The notes below the pieces were generated by a model. That model did not search any database. It was not told where the DNA came from and was given only the letters and a program-made list of their open reading frames with translations. DNA of 20,000 nt, taken from IMG/VR virus record IMGVR_UViG_3300048127_000199. One strand, 5' to 3'. Position numbers and translations under genes: made by a program. Origin of the DNA: an uncultured virus (IMG/VR IMGVR_UViG_3300048127_000199) (Duplodnaviria; Heunggongvirae; Uroviricota; Caudoviricetes). The first letter of the stretch is position 1; each line of letters opens with the position of its first letter. Shown piece after piece: positions 1-17,159 of the stretch.

Positions 1-114
1 ACTTTTAGAAAATTAATGAACAGCAATCGTATGTTCAAATTTGGCTTTACTCCATCAATAGCCTTAACAGAAGGCATTCGCCAAACATACAACTGGTATC
101 TTAAAAATGTCTGA
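1..114 (+). CDS. fcl: 3' end of GDP-L-fucose synthase / NAD-dependent epimerase (partial)
   Basis: Frame 1 reads TFRKLMNSNRMFKFGFTPSIALTEGIRQTYNWYLKNV*, matching the Fcl/WcaG C-terminal pattern RKL.D..R...LG..P...L.EG...TY.W. Confidence 0.75.
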   Translation, partial: TFRKLMNSNRMFKFGFTPSIALTEGIRQTYNWYLKNV

Positions 115-346
115 CAAATATACTGGCCCAAGAGATTTTGATGAGCAAACCGATGCATTTCGTTTTGATCTTGATGATATGTGTGATAGATATTTAGAAG
201 AGTTTGACATTAATGTTTTTACAATAGCTGGAGCTTTGATGGAAAAAATTAAAGAGTTACTTGGAGACGATATAGTTTTTAATTTAGATGAGCCAGATGA
301 AGAAGAAGATGATGAAAACCTTGACGATTTTAATCTAGATGGATAG
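107..346 (+). CDS. hypothetical acidic protein
   Basis: 79 aa ORF overlapping the upstream stop, D/E-rich C-terminus. Confidence 0.7.
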   Translation: MSDKYTGPRDFDEQTDAFRFDLDDMCDRYLEEFDINVFTIAGALMEKIKELLGDDIVFNLDEPDEEEDDENLDDFNLDG

Positions 347-503
347 AAATAAAAAATACCAACAAACAGATAAAGGGAAAGAATCATTATCTAGAGCTAG
401 AAAAAAATATGATGAAGCAGACAAGGAAAAACGTAGGCAACAGAAGCGAGATTACATGCGTCGCAAAAGAGAAGAAGACCCGAATTATTGCAAGTGGAAA
501 TAA
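339..503 (+). CDS. small basic hypothetical protein (54 aa, MDRNKKYQQTDKGKESLSRARKKY...YCKWK)
   Basis: Translated by hand; fills the gap and overlaps the previous stop; below ORF-track size cutoff. Confidence 0.65.
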   Translation: MDRNKKYQQTDKGKESLSRARKKYDEADKEKRRQQKRDYMRRKREEDPNYCKWK

Positions 504-508
504 AAACG

Positions 509-515
509 GTGTAAT
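509..515 (+). promoter_or_regulatory. GTGTAAT motif upstream of the DUF1549/1553 gene
   Basis: Same motif as at 3182, 3212, 6033, 7537, 13562; here the ATG (542) is further away than in the other copies. Confidence 0.45.
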
Positions 516-541
516 TTAATCATAATTGTCTATTGATTGTT

Positions 542-2812
542 ATGAAAATTTTAATCTTATTGTTTTTATCTTCAATTTTCTGTTTTGGGGATACGCTATA
601 TTTTAATAACGGAAAAAATCTGAAAGGCGATATTGTAGAGGCGAATGCTACACACGCGTTAATTAAAAGATCAAGTGATCTGCAATTATTCAGGATTTCA
701 ATTGATTCTTTAACAAAAGACAACCAAGCTTATATTAAAAATAATTTTCCACCCAGTCATGAAGCCTTGCCTAAATTTAAAAGACCATTATCTGATAGAG
801 ATTTAAAAACTCATGCTTATTATATTGATAGCTTAATTGAAGCAAAACTCAGAGGATATAATCTTAGGCCAAATAAGGAGGTCGATGATGCTATATATTT
901 ACGTAGAGCATATCTTAAAATTATCGGGAGGACCCCTTCTTTAGCAGAAGTAAACTCTTTTTTTGATGATAAAGATAAAAATAAAAGATCAAAATTAGTT
1001 GATCAGTTATTAGGTAGTGAAGGATATGTAAGTCACTGGTTTAATTTTTGGGCGGATATATTAAGAATTAAAGATAGGTTAACCAATAGAATATCTGGAG
1101 TGCCTTATAAGAATTATGTAAAAGAGTTTATATCAAATAACAGACCATACGATGAATGGGTTAGAGAAATGTTATCCTCATCAGGCTCTCTATGGGTTAA
1201 AGGCAACGAAGGAGTAAGTTATTTTGCTCGTGATGTCAATATGCCTCTTGATAGCATGGCTAACACAGTACGTATTTTTTTAGGCACAAGCCTCGAGTGC
1301 GCCCAATGCCATGACCATCCTTTTGATCGTTGGACTCAAAAACAATTTTACGAAATGGCTGCATTCACAAGTGGTTCGACTAATTTGAGAACAAAAAGTC
1401 CAGAAAATTTAAGTGTCTTAAATAGATTAGCGAGAGATGAAAGAAGAAAATTAGAGCAGTCCGATCAACCTCAAAAATCTAGACAGCTACAAAATAGCAT
1501 AAGAGATATCCAAGATATTTTGCAAACTGGATTAACGAGTTTAGGTAACGGAAAGATCAGTTTGCCTAAAGATTATCAGTATGATAATGCAAAACCTAAT
1601 GAAGCTTTACTAGGGAAAACGATTTTCGGTAAAGAGGTAGATATTAAAACTGTTGCTCCAAATGCAGGTTCTAGGGAAATTTATGCTAATTGGTTGGCGT
1701 CTGAATCAAATCCAAGATTTACAGCTGTTATTGTAAATCGCTTGTGGAAGGAAGTTTTTGGATTAGCTTTAATAGAGCCAATTGATAATATGTTCGATGA
1801 CACTCTTGCTACCGACCCAAAATTGCAATTACATCTAGAAAAAGTCATGGTTGCCTTAAATTATGATTTAAGAGAGTTTTTAAGAATATTGTATAACACT
1901 AAAACATTCCAAAAAGAGTCTGTAACCAGAGATGTAATACCTAAGGATAATAAAGATCAATCTATGCCTGTAGAAGTTGAGTGGATTATCGCAGGGCCAA
2001 ATACCAAAGCTCAGTCTAAAGGAGCTGTCCCTTATTTTTATCAAGGGCCGATATTAGAAAGAATGAGTGGGGAGCAAATTTGGGATTCTTTAGTAAATTT
2101 AACATTTGATAATATAGATTCTAGAAAATTAGAGCAGAATACAAAAGGCTATGAACAATTCGAAACTCTTTCGTCTATGACTGGAGAAGAATTATTTAAA
2201 GATATAATGGCTAAAATAAATAAAACTGAAAGGCCTAAAGAGGCAAGTAAAACAAAATTTGGTAAACCTATAAATACTGATTGTCCTATTAAGCCTGGTA
2301 GAGCAATCGACCCAACGTTGTTAGCTTTAAACGAAAATGGAGAAACTTTAGCATTTTGTTGTGAATCTTGCGTAGATAAATACAAATCTCAAAAGAAAGT
2401 CAGAGAGCAACAATACAAGCAGAATTTTGTGAAAGATAGAAATTCAGTTAGAGCCTCCGAACTATCTTCTCCTGCTCCGATTGGTCATTTAATCAGAGAG
2501 TTTGGTGGCTCAGATAGAGAGCAGATCGAAAATGCAGAAAACAGCGCCTCGGCGACACAGGTATTAAATTTATTAAACGGCTTCGTTGAAACAAGACTAT
2601 TGAAAAATAAAAACTTTGAAGTTATTAAAGCAATTGAATCCCAAAAGGCGTTAAGTGATAAAATAACAGTAGGTTATAAATATATATTAAACCGAGAGCC
2701 TACTTCTAAAGAATTAAGGATATTTACTGATAATTTAAAAAATACGAAAGATGCATATAAAGAAATAATATGGGTATTAATTAATAGTCATGAATTTATG
2801 TTTGTTAGGTAA
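542..2812 (+). CDS. secreted DUF1549/DUF1553 (PSCyt2/PSD1-type) protein with CxxCH motif and YHS-like insertion
   Basis: Signal peptide MKILILLFLSSIFCFG; YLRRAYLKIIGRTP, W..FWADILR, FLGTSLECAQCHDHPFDRWTQKQFYEMAAF, NPRFTAVIVNRLWKEVFG, C-terminal IIWVLINSHEF; CP...GETLAFCCESC YHS-like motif. ATG 542 preferred over the 533 start. Confidence 0.9.
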   Translation: MKILILLFLSSIFCFGDTLYFNNGKNLKGDIVEANATHALIKRSSDLQLFRISIDSLTKDNQAYIKNNFPPSHEALPKFKRPLSDRDLKTHAYYIDSLIEAKLRGYNLRPNKEVDDAIYLRRAYLKIIGRTPSLAEVNSFFDDKDKNKRSKLVDQLLGSEGYVSHWFNFWADILRIKDRLTNRISGVPYKNYVKEFISNNRPYDEWVREMLSSSGSLWVKGNEGVSYFARDVNMPLDSMANTVRIFLGTSLECAQCHDHPFDRWTQKQFYEMAAFTSGSTNLRTKSPENLSVLNRLARDERRKLEQSDQPQKSRQLQNSIRDIQDILQTGLTSLGNGKISLPKDYQYDNAKPNEALLGKTIFGKEVDIKTVAPNAGSREIYANWLASESNPRFTAVIVNRLWKEVFGLALIEPIDNMFDDTLATDPKLQLHLEKVMVALNYDLREFLRILYNTKTFQKESVTRDVIPKDNKDQSMPVEVEWIIAGPNTKAQSKGAVPYFYQGPILERMSGEQIWDSLVNLTFDNIDSRKLEQNTKGYEQFETLSSMTGEELFKDIMAKINKTERPKEASKTKFGKPINTDCPIKPGRAIDPTLLALNENGETLAFCCESCVDKYKSQKKVREQQYKQNFVKDRNSVRASELSSPAPIGHLIREFGGSDREQIENAENSASATQVLNLLNGFVETRLLKNKNFEVIKAIESQKALSDKITVGYKYILNREPTSKELRIFTDNLKNTKDAYKEIIWVLINSHEFMFVR

Positions 2813-3174
2813 TCCCATCTATTATATTTAAAAAAATAAATCATATCATCTTTTATATAAATCCAACCCCATTTCTCTGTATAAAAATACCCTTTATAGC
2901 TTGGAGCATTATATATCCATCCTAATTTTTCAGAATACAACCAACTTCTAGAAATAGATTTTTTGTAAGTTCCATAAACTCTCCCCAAAGTTTTCATTGT
3001 GAACCACAAGCCTTTCGGTTTTTTACCGCATCTTGCCATCCATTCGCCAAGATCTAACGGTTGAGTAGATTTAGCTTGATTTTTGCACCAATCGCAATTA
3101 TCTAGAAAATCTTTTCTTTCCACCCTTGCTTCTAGACAAATATATATTAATATAAAAAGAAGCGAAAACCTCAT
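2788..3174 (-). CDS. secreted/membrane protein with Trp/Tyr/Gly-rich repeats (WLYSEKLGWIY...FYTEKWGWIY)
   Basis: N-terminal hydrophobic signal, repeated GWIY motif, GTGTA motif 9 nt upstream of its ATG. Confidence 0.75.
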   Translation of the reverse strand: MRFSLLFILIYICLEARVERKDFLDNCDWCKNQAKSTQPLDLGEWMARCGKKPKGLWFTMKTLGRVYGTYKKSISRSWLYSEKLGWIYNAPSYKGYFYTEKWGWIYIKDDMIYFFKYNRWDYLTNINS

Positions 3175-3181
3175 ATATTAT

Positions 3182-3188
3182 ATTACAC
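3182..3188 (-). promoter_or_regulatory. GTGTAAT motif, GTGTA 9 nt before ATG 3174
   Basis: Minus strand reads aaGTGTAatataatatATG. Confidence 0.6.
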
Positions 3189-3211
3189 TTGTGTTGATTT
3201 TTCTTTAAAAT

Positions 3212-3218
3212 GTGTAAT
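3212..3218 (+). promoter_or_regulatory. GTGTAAT motif, GTGTA 11 nt before ATG 3228
   Basis: GTGTAataataatattATG; a weaker TTGATT lies at 3194-3199. Confidence 0.55.
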
Positions 3219-3227
3219 AATAATATT

Positions 3228-4520
3228 ATGAACTTAAATACAATTGATGAATTAGGGAGAAGAGAATTTATAGCGCATGCCGCAAAAGCATGCTTCGGAG
3301 TAGGGCTTATGCCGATGGCAGGAGCTTATATTAACAATACAGTGAGCGCTCTTGAGCCTAGTACTAGAGTTCCGACAGCTAGGCATGTCATTTATTTAAA
3401 TATGTCAGGAGCGATGTCGCATCTTGACACATTTGCCCCAAAGCCTGACGCTCCTGATATTCAAGGGCCTACCAAATCAATTGCAACAAGCGCTGATGGA
3501 GTTATTTTATCCGAAAATCTACCAAAAACAGCGGAACTAATGCATCTTGGGTCAATTATCAAAACAATGAATACTAGTCAAGGAGCCCACATGCAAGCAA
3601 GTTATTTAATGCACACTAGTTATCTTAAGAGGGGCACAATTGTGCATCCTACATTCGGGAGTTGGGTGTCAAAACTTTCAGGTTCAATGAATAAAACAAT
3701 ACCTAGCAATGTTAAGATTGGAGGTGGAGGAGGCGGAGCTGGCTTTCTAGAGTCTAAATACGGCGCTCTTCCCATTAACAACCCTTCCTCAGGTCTAGCT
3801 AATAGTAAAATGGCTTCGTATTTAGATCATGAGCATTTTCAAAGCAGAATATCTATTGCCGAGCAATTGAATCAAAATTTTTCTACAGAATTTCCATTAA
3901 AACAAGTAAGAGCTTACAGTGACTTATATAAAGACGCAATAAAATTAATGAATAGTAATGATCTAAATGCTTTTGATATCACTAAAGAGCCAGCATCTGC
4001 AAGTGATCTTTATGGAAACACTAACTTCGGTAAAGGTTGCTTGTTAGCTAAAAGGCTAGTTGAGCATGGTGTTAGGTATGTAGAAGTTACGCGAGGAGGT
4101 TGGGATACTCATGATAATAACTTTGAAAGAGTTGCTGCAAATTGTGCTGATATCGATCAAGCTTTAAGCGGACTTCTTATTGATTTAGACAGAAGAGGGC
4201 TTTTATCAGAGACTTTGGTTGTATTAACCTCTGAATTTGGCAGAACGCCAAACATAAATGGAAGAGACGGGAGAGACCATTGGCCTTATTGCTTCACAGC
4301 TTTTCTCGCAGGAGGTGGAGTGAAAGGTGGATTTACTTATGGTGAGACAGACAAAACAGGCAGATCTCCTGTTGAAGGAAAACCTATCAAGCCAGAAGAT
4401 TTGAATGCTACTATAGCTCATACCCTTGGTTTATCTTTAAATAATTATCAATATTCCCCGTCAGGAAGACCTTTTACTATAGCCCATAAAGGCGAGCCTT
4501 TGTTTGATATTTTATCTTGA
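3228..4520 (+). CDS. DUF1501 family protein with twin-arginine (Tat) signal
   Basis: GRREFI Tat motif; VIYLNMSGAMSHLDTFAPKP, FGKGCLLAKRLVEHGVRYVEV, GGWDTH, SEFGRTP.IN...GRDHWP, LAGGGVKGG..YGETD. Start 3228 preferred over 3210. Confidence 0.93.
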   Translation: MNLNTIDELGRREFIAHAAKACFGVGLMPMAGAYINNTVSALEPSTRVPTARHVIYLNMSGAMSHLDTFAPKPDAPDIQGPTKSIATSADGVILSENLPKTAELMHLGSIIKTMNTSQGAHMQASYLMHTSYLKRGTIVHPTFGSWVSKLSGSMNKTIPSNVKIGGGGGGAGFLESKYGALPINNPSSGLANSKMASYLDHEHFQSRISIAEQLNQNFSTEFPLKQVRAYSDLYKDAIKLMNSNDLNAFDITKEPASASDLYGNTNFGKGCLLAKRLVEHGVRYVEVTRGGWDTHDNNFERVAANCADIDQALSGLLIDLDRRGLLSETLVVLTSEFGRTPNINGRDGRDHWPYCFTAFLAGGGVKGGFTYGETDKTGRSPVEGKPIKPEDLNATIAHTLGLSLNNYQYSPSGRPFTIAHKGEPLFDILS

Positions 4521-4545
4521 CAAATAATTTAAATTCATCTATAAT
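4517..4545 (+). promoter_or_regulatory. sigma70-type promoter TTGACA-N17-TATAAT, ATG 6 nt after the -10
   Basis: Perfect consensus; the -35 overlaps the DUF1501 stop codon. Confidence 0.85.
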
Positions 4546-4551
4546 CATTAG

Positions 4552-5127
4552 ATGAATAAATTACCCAAAATTATTGGATTAACAGGATTCGCTAGAAGTG
4601 GTAAAGATACTTTTTTTACCGCCATTAACATGCTTTCAAGAGAGATGGGTCTACCAGATTTTCGAAGATTCGCTTTTGCTGATGAATTAAAAAAAGAATG
4701 CGACCCTTTTTTGCTTGATAACATAGGAATATCTGCTTGGACTCAAGAAAATGAATCTAAAGAATTAATCCGCCCTTTTTTAGTGACTTATGGGACTCAT
4801 ATAAGAAGAAAGTTAGATCAAAATTGCTGGATCAATAAAATAAAAGATTCAGTTGAATATTGTTCTGCTAACAGCGAAATACCTGTTATTACAGATGTTA
4901 GGTATGAAAATGAGGCTGCATGGATTAAAGAAAATGATGGAGTTATCGTGGAGATTATTAGACAGTCTGTTGCTCCTGCTAATGAAGAAGAAAAGAGAGA
5001 GTCGTTAAAGCTTATGAATTATAGAGATTTTGTTGTTTCTTGGCCTACGTTTGGCGATGACAGCATGGCAGAGTGCGTAGGTTTTGCTCGCTCTTTTTTG
5101 TCTGATATTCAATGCGTTTTAGCATAA
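4552..5127 (+). CDS. deoxynucleoside monophosphate kinase (T4 gp1-like P-loop kinase)
   Basis: IIGLTGFARSGKDT Walker A, FAFADELK, VITDVRYENEA motifs. Confidence 0.85.
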   Translation: MNKLPKIIGLTGFARSGKDTFFTAINMLSREMGLPDFRRFAFADELKKECDPFLLDNIGISAWTQENESKELIRPFLVTYGTHIRRKLDQNCWINKIKDSVEYCSANSEIPVITDVRYENEAAWIKENDGVIVEIIRQSVAPANEEEKRESLKLMNYRDFVVSWPTFGDDSMAECVGFARSFLSDIQCVLA

Positions 5128-7278: not shown

Positions 7279-7536
7279 ATGTATGACAGCGGCTTAAATA
7301 ATGAATTCGAAAAAGCTCATCAGAAAGGTTTGCATAGAGGATTTGATTTAGGCTGGTCATATAAAGGAAAGTTTGACAGGCAAATAATACAAGACAAAAT
7401 TATAGAGCTTGAAAAGAAATATGAAGCTAGAAAATCTAAAAAAACTTTGAATGAAATAAATATTCTACGAACTGTTTTAACGCAAATAAAAGACCATAAA
7501 TGTAACAGAGAAAACATCACTTTAAACTTTTGGTAA
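7279..7536 (+). CDS. hypothetical protein
   Basis: 85 aa ORF in the tandem gene array. Confidence 0.65.
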   Translation: MYDSGLNNEFEKAHQKGLHRGFDLGWSYKGKFDRQIIQDKIIELEKKYEARKSKKTLNEINILRTVLTQIKDHKCNRENITLNFW

Positions 7537-7543
7537 GTGTAAT
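7537..7543 (+). promoter_or_regulatory. GTGTAAT motif, GTGTA 9 nt before in-frame GTG 7551
   Basis: taaGTGTAatatattttGTG. Confidence 0.6.
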
Positions 7544-7550
7544 ATATTTT

Positions 7551-7940
7551 GTGGAACATAAACATCTTTTAGTTAATGCTACTTTCGAGCAGACCCCATT
7601 TACGAATACAGATTTCACAAATAAATGGCTTTTAAAAATTGTTAAATTAATTGACATGGAAGTTTTGCATGAACCTGTCTCGGTGAGATGTGATGAAAAA
7701 AATAACGAGGGCGTTAGCGGGTTCTGTTTAATAACAACGAGTCATTTATCTTTGCATTCTTGGGAGAAAAAAACTCCGAATTTATTACAACTTGATGTCT
7801 ATAGTTGTAAAGATTTTGACCCTCATTTAATTGAGTATGAAATTAAAAAATTTCATCCAATATCTCTTGGGTTAAAATTCCTAGATAGAAGAGTACGAAA
7901 TACTAAAGGATGGTCAATGTTTGATGAAAGCAAGGCATGA
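7551..7940 (+). CDS. speD: S-adenosylmethionine decarboxylase-fold pyruvoyl proenzyme, divergent (TTSH at the cleavage site)
   Basis: HKHLLVN, GVSGFCLITTSHLSLHSW, QLDVYSCKDFD; GTG start at 7551. Confidence 0.8.
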   Translation: MEHKHLLVNATFEQTPFTNTDFTNKWLLKIVKLIDMEVLHEPVSVRCDEKNNEGVSGFCLITTSHLSLHSWEKKTPNLLQLDVYSCKDFDPHLIEYEIKKFHPISLGLKFLDRRVRNTKGWSMFDESKA

Positions 7941-8701
7941 AAATATATTTTAGGCATTACTCAGGAGCAATCACTGAATACGATTATTTATTTTTTGATT
8001 GCATGGCAGAAGTTCCGTTAGACGAAGAAGAGCGAGCTTTGCAGGAAGGATGGTTACCTGATGACTATTTTGCTCCTAAAAATGCAGTAAAATCCCATTG
8101 GTATCAAGCTCGACAAACAAGAATTGATTTAAGCAAATTTATTGATACTCGCAGTAGTCGAAAGGCTAGAAAAAAATGCAAAGATATTGTGGTCAAATAT
8201 ACGAAAGCGAATAAAGCAAATATAGAAATTTTAAAAGATATATTTAATAAATATTTTGAATACAGAAACTTTAAGCCTTGGAAGCTAGAGCCTCTACTAA
8301 GTTTAGAGATTGAGAGAAAACATTTTTTAATTTATTATTTAAATGACGAACCTATTGCTTTTACATTTTTGAGAGATGTCGGAGAGAATAGTGTTTTCTC
8401 AACGCAGTTTGCGTGGAATTATGAAAATCCAAAATTATATTTAGGCAAATATGCAAACCTTGCAGAAATAGACTATTGTATTGCAAATAATAAAGACTAT
8501 ATGTATACAGGAGTAGGGTATGAAAAAGCTTGTATATATAAGTCTGACTACCAAGGGTTTCAATTTTGGAACGGAGAAGCGTGGTCGAATAACACAGAAG
8601 ATTATAAATGGTTATGCGAGAGAGATTCTAAAATTGAAAAAACAAAAGATTTAGATAAAATAAAAAGATACGATGATAAAAATTTTTTTATAAATGATTA
8701 A
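7937..8701 (+). CDS. Ate1/Bpt-like aminoacyl-tRNA-protein transferase (GNAT-type fold)
   Basis: ALQEGW, WYQARQTRIDLSKF, FAWNYENPKLYLGKYANLAEI, YMYTGVGY...CIYKSDYQGFQFW resemble the ATE C-terminal pattern (LG......EI...YLY.GY...M.YK..F). Confidence 0.65.
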   Translation: MKIYFRHYSGAITEYDYLFFDCMAEVPLDEEERALQEGWLPDDYFAPKNAVKSHWYQARQTRIDLSKFIDTRSSRKARKKCKDIVVKYTKANKANIEILKDIFNKYFEYRNFKPWKLEPLLSLEIERKHFLIYYLNDEPIAFTFLRDVGENSVFSTQFAWNYENPKLYLGKYANLAEIDYCIANNKDYMYTGVGYEKACIYKSDYQGFQFWNGEAWSNNTEDYKWLCERDSKIEKTKDLDKIKRYDDKNFFIND

Positions 8702-9212: not shown

Positions 9213-9617
9213 ATGTACTTAGGTAGTCAAGAATTAGTTGAATTTTATAATTGCGATGAAGATATTTTAAAAGATTCTGATTTAATAAAAAAAATATTTA
9301 TCGAATCTGCTAAACTAGGTAACGCAAATATAGTTAATAGTCTATTTCATTCTTTCAGTCCTTATGGGGTCACAGGAGTCTTAGTGATTGCAGAAAGTCA
9401 TATGAGTATTCATACATGGCATGAGTTTAATTATTGTGCAGTTGATATATTTTCTTGTTGCGATAAATTAAATAATAAAATTGTTTTAGAAGACTTAAAA
9501 GACAAACTATTCAGTAGTAGATATGAATCAACACTAGTTAATAGGGGGAATAAATATATTATCGAACAAAGTGCAAATAAAAAGTTGACAAATAAGCAAA
9601 AATCTGTCAGAATATAA
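9213..9617 (+). CDS. speD: S-adenosylmethionine decarboxylase proenzyme (canonical ESH)
   Basis: FHSFSPYGVTGVLVIAESHMSIHTWHEFNYCAVDIFSC and C-terminal RG, typical of the short SpeD/SpeH class. Confidence 0.92.
   Translation: MYLGSQELVEFYNCDEDILKDSDLIKKIFIESAKLGNANIVNSLFHSFSPYGVTGVLVIAESHMSIHTWHEFNYCAVDIFSCCDKLNNKIVLEDLKDKLFSSRYESTLVNRGNKYIIEQSANKKLTNKQKSVRI
9585..9613 (+). promoter_or_regulatory. sigma70-type promoter TTGACA-N17-CAGAAT, ATG 6 nt after the -10
   Basis: Embedded in the speD 3' end; fixed spacing to ATG 9620. Confidence 0.7.
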
Positions 9618-16216: not shown

Positions 16217-16804
16217 ATGAGCGGAGAAGGTTTATCAGTTAGTTTTAGAAGAACATCCTTTACGGATAAGTCTAATGCAGAACTCCTTGAGGAGTTTCAA
16301 AAGATCATCTACAATAGTAGAGTTATGAGGCACATGAAATGGTATGGCAAACTTAATAGTGTTGACATACTAGAGCATGGTGACGACAACCGACCAAAAT
16401 TTCAACAAGAATATGTTGCAATTAAAGACACTTTTCAATTTGAGATTAGTGTTTATGAGTCTTGGTACGAAGATGCTGATCTTTATGAGTCGTATGAAGT
16501 AGAAGATAGTTTTGTGTCTCTTGCTTTTAAGTTCGCCAAAGATAACAACTTGATGTATTTTTCCCAAGGTTTTCCTGCGGAATGGATAGAGACAGAAACT
16601 GCTGATGGAGAAAGATGTTGGAATCATTATAATGTAAAACCCGATGATAAAAACATTGACAAGATATGCAAGATATGGCATGATTATAGTATGAATATGG
16701 TTAAAGCAGGACAATGTGGTCAAACTGACGAAATGAAAAGTCATTATTGGAAATCAGCAAGAGATCAAATAAAAGAATTAATGGAATATGAATATGCAAA
16801 ATAG
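16217..16804 (+). CDS. hypothetical protein
   Basis: 195 aa ORF following a promoter. Confidence 0.75.
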   Translation: MSGEGLSVSFRRTSFTDKSNAELLEEFQKIIYNSRVMRHMKWYGKLNSVDILEHGDDNRPKFQQEYVAIKDTFQFEISVYESWYEDADLYESYEVEDSFVSLAFKFAKDNNLMYFSQGFPAEWIETETADGERCWNHYNVKPDDKNIDKICKIWHDYSMNMVKAGQCGQTDEMKSHYWKSARDQIKELMEYEYAK

Positions 16805-17159
16805 ATCAGATAATTATTTAACAGAGCAATACAATCGAAATCGTCCACCATCAGAACATATCTCAAATGTGGATCAAATATCAAACGCTTACTCGCAAAG
16901 TTGGTTGACAATCAGACGAGAAGATAATACGGACGATTGGTCTGCTCCGATTATGTGGTTAGATGACGAATCGGAATATGATCTTTTTGCATTTAATGAC
17001 CTAAATATAGATTGGGTGGAAGAAATGGATAAAGAGGGTGCTCCAATTATAGATGGCGATCACTTAGGCAGAGATATTTGTATTGAAGTAACCTGCCCAT
17101 CTAAAGGTTGGAATAAAAGAAGGGCAATAGGATACAACATAGATTTTGATTGGAACTAA
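16788..17159 (+). CDS. hypothetical acidic Trp-rich protein
   Basis: 123 aa ORF; start could be 16794. Confidence 0.7.
   Translation: MNMQNRSDNYLTEQYNRNRPPSEHISNVDQISNAYSQSWLTIRREDNTDDWSAPIMWLDDESEYDLFAFNDLNIDWVEEMDKEGAPIIDGDHLGRDICIEVTCPSKGWNKRRAIGYNIDFDWN

Follow-up and report, generated by a model that had tools for sequence, protein, structure and literature searches.

The 20,000-nt stretch of DNA analysed here (the window) is the reverse strand of bases 968-20967 of a 64,361-bp record (32.7% GC) of an uncultured virus, IMGVR_UViG_3300048127_000199, with which it agrees at all but 3 of its 20,000 bases. Close to its start lie two genes on the same strand, one encoding a protein with PSCyt2 (DUF1549) and PSD1 (DUF1553) domains, hereafter the partner, and the other a DUF1501 protein. 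A preliminary description, made from the letters alone, had read them as an intact envelope module of the Planctomycetes-Verrucomicrobia-Chlamydiae (PVC) group captured by a phage. The analysis presented here supported that interpretation overall: all the outcomes it had listed as refuting were checked for, and none was observed. The two genes are a host-derived auxiliary pair of the phage: they lie in a phage genome, are conserved under purifying selection and have their nearest relatives in cells.

The partner gene was listed as an open reading frame (ORF) running from TTG 533 to 2812 (759 aa); ATG 542 was taken as its start because the resulting 756 aa equal the length of a 100%-identical database protein (P0121). 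For DUF1501, ATG 3228 was favoured over ATG 3210, since the homologues are 430 aa long. Both ORFs were full-length and intact at the positions first given for them, and profile hidden Markov models of all three families named at the outset matched above their cut-offs. In the partner, PSCyt2 (PF07583; E 1.9e-45, 155.8 bits against a cut-off of 29.8, aa 98-280) and PSD1 (PF07587; E 1.2e-24, 87.5 bits against 28.5, aa 381-732) both exceeded their gathering scores and followed each other in the expected order, with a DUF4214 match at the C-terminus (Pfam). The DUF1501 family itself (PF07394) was matched at E 4.5e-108 (362.3 bits against a cut-off of 27) over profile positions 1-389 of 390. The Sec-type and twin-arginine signals proposed earlier could also be read from the sequence. 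The N-terminus of the partner, MKILILLFLSSIFCFG, has by eye the character of a Sec-type signal, and that of the DUF1501 protein, again by eye, joins GRREFI to a hydrophobic stretch; its RR pair was invariant in 13 of 13 aligned phage copies and visible in the further DUF1501 N-termini examined.

The CAQCH motif was found exactly where it had been reported, at aa 256-260 of the 759-aa reading. It stands at the end of PSCyt2 in a block that was invariant across a 53-row partner alignment, and CxxCH was retained in 32 of 33 phage copies (the exception being a 204-aa fragment) and in 41 of 47 cellular copies. Among the six cellular proteins without it, two (L055 and L080) are full-length and the other four are cut fragments. 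Together with a four-cysteine insert further downstream, the motif accounts for all six cysteines of the mature partner. The insert weakly resembled the RPA12 zinc ribbon (E 0.37), its regular expression matched 26 of the 33 phage copies, and PF04945 (YHS) is present in some homologues. In DUF1501, 49-51 of the 51 phage copies and 46-48 of the 48 cellular ones retain the motifs QGAH, WDTH, SEFGR and GRDHW.

The record carrying both genes is a phage. It is a virus entry of IMG/VR with a CheckV completeness of 44%, and a near-identical phage relative of 193,844 bp is rated 100% complete. Phage-type genes stand on either side of the pair, as the preliminary description had held. Inside the window these are a deoxynucleoside monophosphate (dNMP) kinase, two S-adenosylmethionine (SAM) decarboxylases, a clamp loader, UvdE, an endonuclease VII/HNH protein and ThyX (Pfam, PHROG). 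The rest of the contig adds lambda-like tail-tip genes (phrog_18, 30 and 32) followed by a 1,932-aa ORF, a DNA polymerase with a separate exonuclease subunit, a primase, a DnaB-like helicase, a Lon-like protease, a virion structural protein and sugar-nucleotide enzymes. The AT-rich composition noted earlier for the pair and its surroundings was likewise borne out, the GC content at third codon positions (GC3) being 0.24 and 0.27 for the two module genes and 0.27 for the phage DNA polymerase. A perfect sigma-70 consensus marks the downstream boundary of the module (Table 1).

Table 1 Features of the module and its borders in the window.
Feature	Position	Strand	Basis	Remarks
GTGTAAT	509..515	+		33 nt before ATG 542 of the partner gene
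Sec-signal PSCyt2 (DUF1549) + PSD1 (DUF1553) gene	542..2812	+	Pfam, AF2	756 aa
CAQCH motif	1298..1312	+	Alignment, motif search	C253/C256/H257 (756-aa numbering), inside invariant block ECAQCHDHPFDRW
Cys4 insert CPIKPGRAIDP...FCCESC	2282..2371	+	Regex, sequence	Zinc-ribbon/YHS-like, aa 581-610
Antisense 128-aa gene	2788..3174	-	ORF list, Pfam, PHROG	Signal-like N-terminus, no family
GTGTAAT	3182..3188	-		7 nt before ATG of the 128-aa antisense gene
Promoter-like TTGATT-16 nt-AATAAT	3194..3221	+		TG before second hexamer; contains GTGTAAT 3212-3218; ends 6 nt before ATG 3228
GTGTAAT	3212-3218	+		Overlaps ATG 3210, 10 nt before ATG 3228
Twin-arginine-signal DUF1501 gene	3228..4520	+	Pfam, AF2, VIA	430 aa (436 aa from ATG 3210)
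Perfect sigma-70 consensus TTGACA-17-TATAAT (12/12)	4517..4545	+		Overlaps DUF1501 stop, directly before dNMP kinase gene
dNMP kinase gene	4552-5127	+	Pfam, PHROG	Next gene after DUF1501

Conservation, cellular relatives and origin

Searching IMG/VR with the DUF1501 protein yielded 50 distinct loci (60-100% identity, on contigs of up to 213,830 bp), and a tblastn comparison with all 92 ORFs of the contig showed that every one of the 50 has core phage genes in common with it. The partner lay directly upstream of DUF1501 in 33 of them. Both module genes are under strong purifying selection, comparable to that on the phage DNA polymerase: the median dN/dS was 0.029 for DUF1501 (68 pairs with 0.05 < dS < 1.5), 0.066 for the partner (77 pairs) and 0.023 for the polymerase (8 pairs). 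Related phages retain the pair in intact form, with both genes in 33 of the 50 loci, and the suggestion of a single-copy system also held, with one DUF1501 gene in each of the five phage records searched, four of which are rated 100% complete. At one related phage locus, a second and distant DUF1501 paralogue (L036:11064-12239, 37% identity to the window copy) was seen about 1.8 kb downstream of the first. Among 50,697 deposited phage records (INPHARED), tblastn found no match to either protein, and PHROG holds no family for either.

One phage clade carries DUF1501 alone, and its gene starts about 10-20 nt after a phage-encoded transfer-messenger RNA (tmRNA) gene (L039:7621-7984, L044:7588-7984, L045:7546-7979 and L040:2339-2705). 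Rfam RF00023 scored 102-126 bits in all four loci, and ARAGORN called a tmRNA in L045 only, with a tag peptide ending in LALAA. L045 also contains a manA RNA motif (16717-16917; Rfam RF01745, scoring 76.7 bits where 55.2 is the gathering score). In L039, a 1,234-aa phage protein encoded before the tmRNA-DUF1501 region (29-3733) has concanavalin-like lectin/Laminin_G domains and may be a receptor-binding fibre.

Cellular relatives were sought in one genome per prokaryote species, which yielded 49 loci. Forty-seven of these belonged to Opitutales, Opitutia, Puniceicoccaceae, Candidatus Seribacter or Verrucomicrobia, with 64-79% identity in DUF1501, and one to Planctomycetota (47% identity); the partner was 45-62% identical to its orthologues in the Opitutales operon. 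The remaining locus (L084) is a 210,818-bp contig of 35% GC with a DUF1501 gene at 68% identity, from a metagenome-assembled genome (MAG) named 'Cellvibrionales'. Because it has the same phage genes and a GC content of 35%, we regard it as a mis-binned, near-complete genome of this phage lineage, whose bin label would yield a false host. The other 48 are cellular: their 6-kb flanks are free of phage genes, their GC content is 38-69%, and in 47 of them the partner is directly upstream of DUF1501, the exception being cut at a contig end. The PVC host foreseen in the preliminary description therefore agrees with 47 of the 49 named-genome matches, and these gene relationships make marine Opitutales (Verrucomicrobiota) the likely hosts of the phage. 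Near-identity to a host locus was excluded, as the best cellular identity was 79% and GC3 had shifted to the phage value (0.267 in phage DUF1501 and 0.268 in phage polymerase, against a median of 0.400 in 30 cellular genes).

A DUF1501 tree was built from 21 phage and 27 cellular rows, near-duplicates, three partial rows and the long-branch L103 and L085 having been set aside. In it the phage copies fell among those of Opitutales, in three clades (support 100/98, 98/93 and 100/98) separated by cellular rows, and a quick tree of all 85 distinct rows agreed with it. In the approximately unbiased (AU) test, a single phage clade was rejected (difference in log-likelihood 154, p 6.5e-55), as was a union of the first two phage clades (p 5.8e-7, for a group named after the tree had been seen). 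The partner tree was congruent, with the window's clade beside one Opitutales group and a second phage clade nested in another, next to a Puniceicoccaceae MAG. Three separate clades and a congruent partner tree imply at least two transfers of the complete pair between Opitutales and these phages, and a third in which DUF1501 moved by itself. The wide cellular distribution of the genes suggests that transfer ran from host to phage. The idea of capture thus stood as far as host derivation and conservation in phages are concerned and had to be revised in its form, since there were at least three exchanges rather than one and many relatives keep only DUF1501.

Five host genomes of 2.1-4.4 Mb contained 18-72 DUF1501 matches each, and despite these many host paralogues the phage copies were always of the same orthologue. 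In ten cellular loci an ORF of 571-705 aa starts within a few bases after DUF1501, and in five of the five loci scanned this third operon gene encoded a multi-PSCyt1 c-type cytochrome. Other recurrent neighbours of the host operon were a class-V aminotransferase (4 of 4 scanned), a PAS protein (3), an opposite-strand sulfatase (3) and a formylglycine-generating enzyme (FGE)-sulfatase gene (2). A protein search with the host cytochrome found it in none of four complete phage records, against 22 matches in a control host genome; a search of the phage records with PF07635 was blank, as were its positive controls. As the cytochrome is absent and a dNMP kinase gene comes next, the phage version amounts to the first two genes of the three-gene operon, or to its middle gene alone.

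Putative expression signals and neighbouring genes

The preliminary description had placed the motif GTGTAAT upstream of each gene. This held for the partner, the first copy preceding its ATG; the second lies before the favoured DUF1501 start and overlaps the alternative one (Table 1). Over-representation of the motif was considered and rejected, both in the window (5 copies against 2.13 ± 1.51 expected; 13 of 200 shuffles gave at least 5) and in the contig (10 against 7.5 ± 3.1). Its placement was non-random: 6 of the 10 contig copies fell within -10 to +35 nt of a same-strand start, against 3.3% expected (binomial P 2.4e-7), and the motif ranked first among 194 7-mers of the same composition in its association with starts. 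The start-linked copies precede the two genes of the module, the antisense 128-aa gene between them, and the genes of the Lon-like protease and of a virion protein. The TTGATT-16-AATAAT element before DUF1501 may be a promoter, and the arrangement TTGAYT..TGTGTAATAAT is kept upstream of DUF1501 in eight related loci (L005, L007, L009, L010, L011, L018, L019 and L022). This one conserved promoter-like element and the start-associated motif suggest that the module may be under the phage's own regulation.

The antisense gene between the pair overlaps the end of the partner gene by 25 nt. It occupies the same place in 9 of the 50 related loci (58-100% identity) and is absent from a relative of about 90% identity, whose contigs (runs X17 and X19) skip 2813-3192; an atlas search with its protein gave no usable match. 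In relatives lacking this insertion the two module genes are 13-45 nt apart and look co-transcribed.

Two other groups of genes were observed nearby. Within the window, two paralogous SAM decarboxylases (AdoMet_dc, E 1.4e-12 and 2.2e-33) enclose a gene weakly matching the C-terminal domain of arginine-tRNA-protein transferase (E 1e-6); this set (7530-7940, 7937-8701 and 9213-9617, all on the plus strand) may be a polyamine-related auxiliary set. Beyond the start of the window, and adjoining the module, are two nucleotide-sugar epimerase/dehydratase-like genes and an aminotransferase (contig 20854-24878, equal to L001:854-4878), with a formyltransferase-like gene farther out (contig 25264-25965, L001:5264-5965). 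Nucleotide-sugar epimerase genes adjoin the pair in many relatives too.

Predicted assembly and possible function

The AlphaFold 2 (AF2) model of DUF1501 reached a mean predicted local distance difference test (pLDDT) of 79.6 and a predicted template modelling score (pTM) of 0.80. In VIA comparisons its best match was ENPP6 (5ege; Z 20.9, root-mean-square deviation (rmsd) 2.9 Å over 244 aa), effectively tied with the nucleotide pyrophosphatase/phosphodiesterase (NPP) of Xanthomonas (2gsn/7mw8; Z 20.5), PafA (5tj3; 19.9) and many sulfatases at about 19; the top Foldseek match was the sulfatase 1p49 (E 4.6e-8). The DUF1501 model thus adopts a fold of the alkaline-phosphatase superfamily and does not separate NPP from sulfatases. 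By sequence the protein does not qualify as a type I sulfatase, the C/S-x-P/A-x-R motif being absent and PF00884 giving no match at E ≤0.01. By sequence, PDB sulfatases matched DUF1501 at E 0.11-0.7 only, and nothing in the PDB was significant for either protein.

The partner model (pLDDT 71.3) consists of an SH3-like beta domain (aa 17-53) and an otherwise helical remainder, and is poorly defined around CxxCH (aa 221-263) and in the Cys4 insert (aa 564-611). VIA and Foldseek were run on the whole 756-aa model, so that single domains may have escaped detection. At that level the best VIA match was to SHD1 (Z 7.3, aa 15-71 only), the helical parts remained within noise (Z ≤6.2), and Foldseek found no convincing solved relative (best E 0.19).

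To model the two proteins as a complex, partner residues 85-703 and DUF1501 residues 50-430 were used in three runs, with three controls. The median ipSAE of the runs was 0.67, against 0.00 for the best of the three controls; for comparison, 116 of 157 solved complexes scored that high, as did 2 of 215 mismatched pairs, counts that are only approximate here because our own alignments and truncated chains were used. Contacts agreed between runs by at least 83%, with a partner pLDDT of at least 85. As neither family has a solved relative by sequence, this result is not the recall of a known complex. The predicted interface comprises residues 237, 240, 252-253 (the E and C of ECAQCH), 460-507 and 647-688 of the partner and residues 118, 120-123 (the QGAH loop), 168-241 and 410-414 of DUF1501. 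The prediction supports binding of the partner to DUF1501, with CxxCH placed against the conserved QGAH loop.

On balance we lean towards a reading in which the pair acts as a periplasmic two-subunit hydrolase, carried as a host-derived auxiliary module by an uncultured marine phage of about 190-210 kb and boosting a pathway of its Opitutales host. The DUF1501 protein would be exported folded through the twin-arginine translocation (Tat) system and would act as the catalytic subunit, a metallo-hydrolase of the predicted alkaline-phosphatase/NPP/sulfatase type. The mostly helical partner would leave the cytoplasm by Sec and dock onto it in the periplasm, setting the invariant CxxCH block and the conserved PSD1 helices over the QGAH loop. 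The pair copies the first two genes of one Opitutales operon (PSCyt2/PSD1, DUF1501, multi-PSCyt1 cytochrome c), and as such it would rely on the host's Sec and Tat systems, on its cytochrome maturation if haem is attached and on the host cytochrome if electrons are exchanged. Its probable role would be to raise the capacity of that pathway during infection. Our best guess at the chemistry is the hydrolysis of periplasmic phospho- or sulfo-esters, which might supply nutrients for a very large DNA genome.

Several observations weigh against this reading. On the enzymatic side, the formylglycine motif of sulfatases (C/S-x-P-x-R) is missing from DUF1501, a canonical nucleophile (Thr/Ser) was not identified, and its match to PF01663 (Phosphodiest) fell below the cut-off (16.7 bits against 23). 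An hhalign comparison of the DUF1501 profile with a host sulfatase aligned 35 columns at a probability of 2.9%, a coverage from which catalytic residues are not mappable. The CxxCH region of the partner was modelled at a pLDDT below 50, and no cytochrome fold was among the partner's Foldseek and VIA matches in the whole-model search. No member of either family has a known assay, cofactor or substrate. Other points concern how firmly phages hold on to the genes. The partner is dispensable, since 17 of the 50 phage loci have DUF1501 without it; in the ten of these inspected, DUF1501 stands alone beside a ribonucleotide reductase, pyrophosphatase or kinase-like gene. DUF1501 is itself accessory: among 12 further records of at least 100 kb, drawn from the 80 best DNA-polymerase relatives (L165 and L181 left out), 5 had it and 7 did not, three of the latter being rated at least 98% complete. 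In one locus (L052, 8001-9285) DUF1501 is split by a frameshift near aa 330, although a poor assembly is likelier there than decay, because the DNA polymerase, exonuclease and Lon-like genes of that contig are fragmented as well. Regarding expression, sigma-70-like sites were not enriched in 300-4700 (11 against 17.9 ± 4.4). The expression data consist of contigs from RNA-labelled runs, of which X17, X18 and X19 may be DNA, and the parts of the window they leave uncovered are uninformative. In the RNA-library run X20, 100%-identical contigs fell inside DUF1501 (3954-4147 and 4446-4603), a weak hint of transcription for which DNA carry-over is possible.

The main rival is a redox module, in which haem c would sit on the partner's CxxCH and DUF1501 would oxidise or reduce a periplasmic substrate, with electrons passing through the host multi-PSCyt1 cytochrome to the respiratory chain and boosting host energy. 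The invariance of the CxxCH block, whose cysteines are among the only ones of the mature partner, agrees with such a role, as do the multi-PSCyt1 c-type cytochrome that comes next in the host operon (5 of 5 loci), export by Tat, which suggests a cofactor loaded in the cytoplasm, and the predicted interface, which sets CxxCH beside the conserved DUF1501 loop. Electron transport has been proposed for the module (Kamneva et al. 2012, PMC3542564), and a redox role is cited for PSD1/PSC2 proteins (Wecker et al. 2009, PMC2754498), in the passages of these papers that deal with the families. Nevertheless, DUF1501 is predicted to have a hydrolase-type fold of the alkaline-phosphatase superfamily with D/H motifs, the cytochrome was in none of the four complete phage records, phages dropped the CxxCH partner in 17 of 50 loci, and the partner model, with its ill-defined CxxCH region, matched no cytochrome fold when searched whole. 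We therefore consider a redox module unlikely.

Of lesser standing is envelope remodelling, by which an exported enzyme would modify lipid A/lipopolysaccharide, a capsule precursor or a peptidoglycan-linked polymer, against superinfection or for lysis; the preliminary description had likewise proposed an action on the host envelope. In favour of this are the predicted export of the two proteins, the existence of envelope-modifying enzymes in the alkaline-phosphatase superfamily (LtaS was among the Foldseek matches) and the position of the genes in a region of early or middle replication functions. An NCBIfam match to YejM points the same way, yet is very weak (E 0.0093) and lies far below its cut-off (14.3 bits against 825). 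Moreover, neither protein has, as read from its sequence, a membrane anchor beyond the signal peptide, and the operon of the cellular orthologues is coupled to a cytochrome and flanked by aminotransferase, PAS-protein and sulfatase genes, not by genes of envelope biosynthesis. Such a role appears improbable.

That the pair is an artefact or passenger, namely recent host DNA, a chimeric assembly or a mislabelled cellular contig serving no phage function, can be excluded for practical purposes: some public bins do call related contigs bacterial and the genes have neither a PHROG family nor a match among deposited phages, but the 'Cellvibrionales' contig is itself full of the same phage genes over its 210,818 bp, the pair is flanked on both sides by phage genes here and in the related viral loci that retain flanks, dN/dS is 0.03-0.07, GC3 has the value of the phage polymerase, no cellular copy exceeds 79% identity, and the stretch recurs almost verbatim in contigs of 16 seawater runs, a recurrence that is weak as independent support because 15 of the 16 runs are flagged as possible sources.

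The preferred reading, a periplasmic hydrolase pair, can be taken a step further. Phages may have repeatedly taken up the same DUF1501 paralogue, accompanied by its CxxCH partner or not, because this enzyme limits their yield, the heterodimer may plug into the host PSCyt1 cytochrome, and CxxCH may form part of a composite metal/haem active site with the NPP-like hydrolase. We hold this extension to be conceivable but doubtful; were it true, it would represent a coupling of hydrolase and cytochrome without characterised precedent, and the phage pair would embody the smallest functional core of the PVC DUF1501/PSCyt system as a whole.

In Planctomycetes and Verrucomicrobia, DUF1501 and the PSCyt/PSD1 proteins rank with the largest families that still lack an explanation, their copies numbering in the tens in each genome. 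That one pair is kept under strong selection and that the same orthologue has been taken at least three times indicate that this orthologue matters during infection. The phage pair offers a minimal version that can be expressed for biochemical and structural work, and the cytochrome gene of the host operon together with the predicted interface provides testable ideas on how the module is built. The gene trees, in turn, point to marine Opitutales as hosts of a widespread group of uncultured phages of about 200 kb.

Comparison with known systems

DUF1501 and PSCyt1/PSCyt2/PSD1 have been described as a 'conserved genetic module' of Planctomycetes, Verrucomicrobia and Lentisphaerae, the function of which is left open where it is introduced, and a twin-arginine signal was noted there for many DUF1501 members (Kamneva et al. 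2012, PMC3542564). PSCyt2 genes are said to adjoin a family of unknown function in a passage of He et al. (2017, PMC5615132), and 41 copies of each domain are given for Rhodopirellula baltica in the relevant part of Wecker et al. (2009, PMC2754498). In the open-access literature, which leaves subscription journals and supplements outside the search, we found no report of DUF1501 or of the PSCyt2/PSD1 pair in a phage. A weak CDD match in a 61-aa Pseudomonas phage protein was all that this literature held on DUF1501 and phages, none of the papers found on DUF1549, DUF1553 or PSCyt2 was viral, and no paper was found with both DUF1501 and DUF1553. What it held on Opitutales, phages and auxiliary metabolism appeared unrelated, to judge by titles and opening lines of abstracts, and the viral papers naming planctomycete cytochromes were on Symbiodinium. 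The phage pair shares with the module of Kamneva et al. its domain families, the position of the partner directly before DUF1501 on the same strand, the Tat signal, the signal peptide of the partner and CxxCH, and differs from it in being single-copy, as against 18-72 matches per host genome. Compared with the Opitutales operon, the phage version has no third gene for the multi-PSCyt1 cytochrome, 17 of the 50 phage loci have DUF1501 only, and the partner is shorter (about 756 aa, against 840-890 aa in cells).

At the level of predicted structure, NPP and PafA were the closest matches to the DUF1501 model (rmsd about 3-4 Å over 244-275 residues), and the D/H-containing motifs WDTH and GRDHW appear to be of the metal-binding kind found in the superfamily. 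The differences lie in an identity of 11-16%, a Phosphodiest match below the cut-off and the lack of an assigned Thr/Ser nucleophile; we also know of no NPP that requires a helical CxxCH partner. With the type I sulfatases (PF00884), DUF1501 has in common the superfamily fold and a local motif, D..lg.ll..L...GlL..TlVv.tS(D/E).G, and the host locus adjoins sulfatase and FGE-sulfatase genes, whereas the C/S-x-P-x-R motif and a PF00884 match are missing and the hhalign probability is 2.9%.

Cyanophages carry host-derived exported auxiliary genes, such as those for the periplasmic phosphate-binding protein PstS and the alkaline phosphatase PhoA. The module resembles these as a set of host-derived accessory genes, with a periplasmic and putatively nutrient-acquiring function, kept under selection in large marine phages, and stands apart from them in belonging to another family and another host phylum and in being a two-subunit module that has been captured repeatedly.

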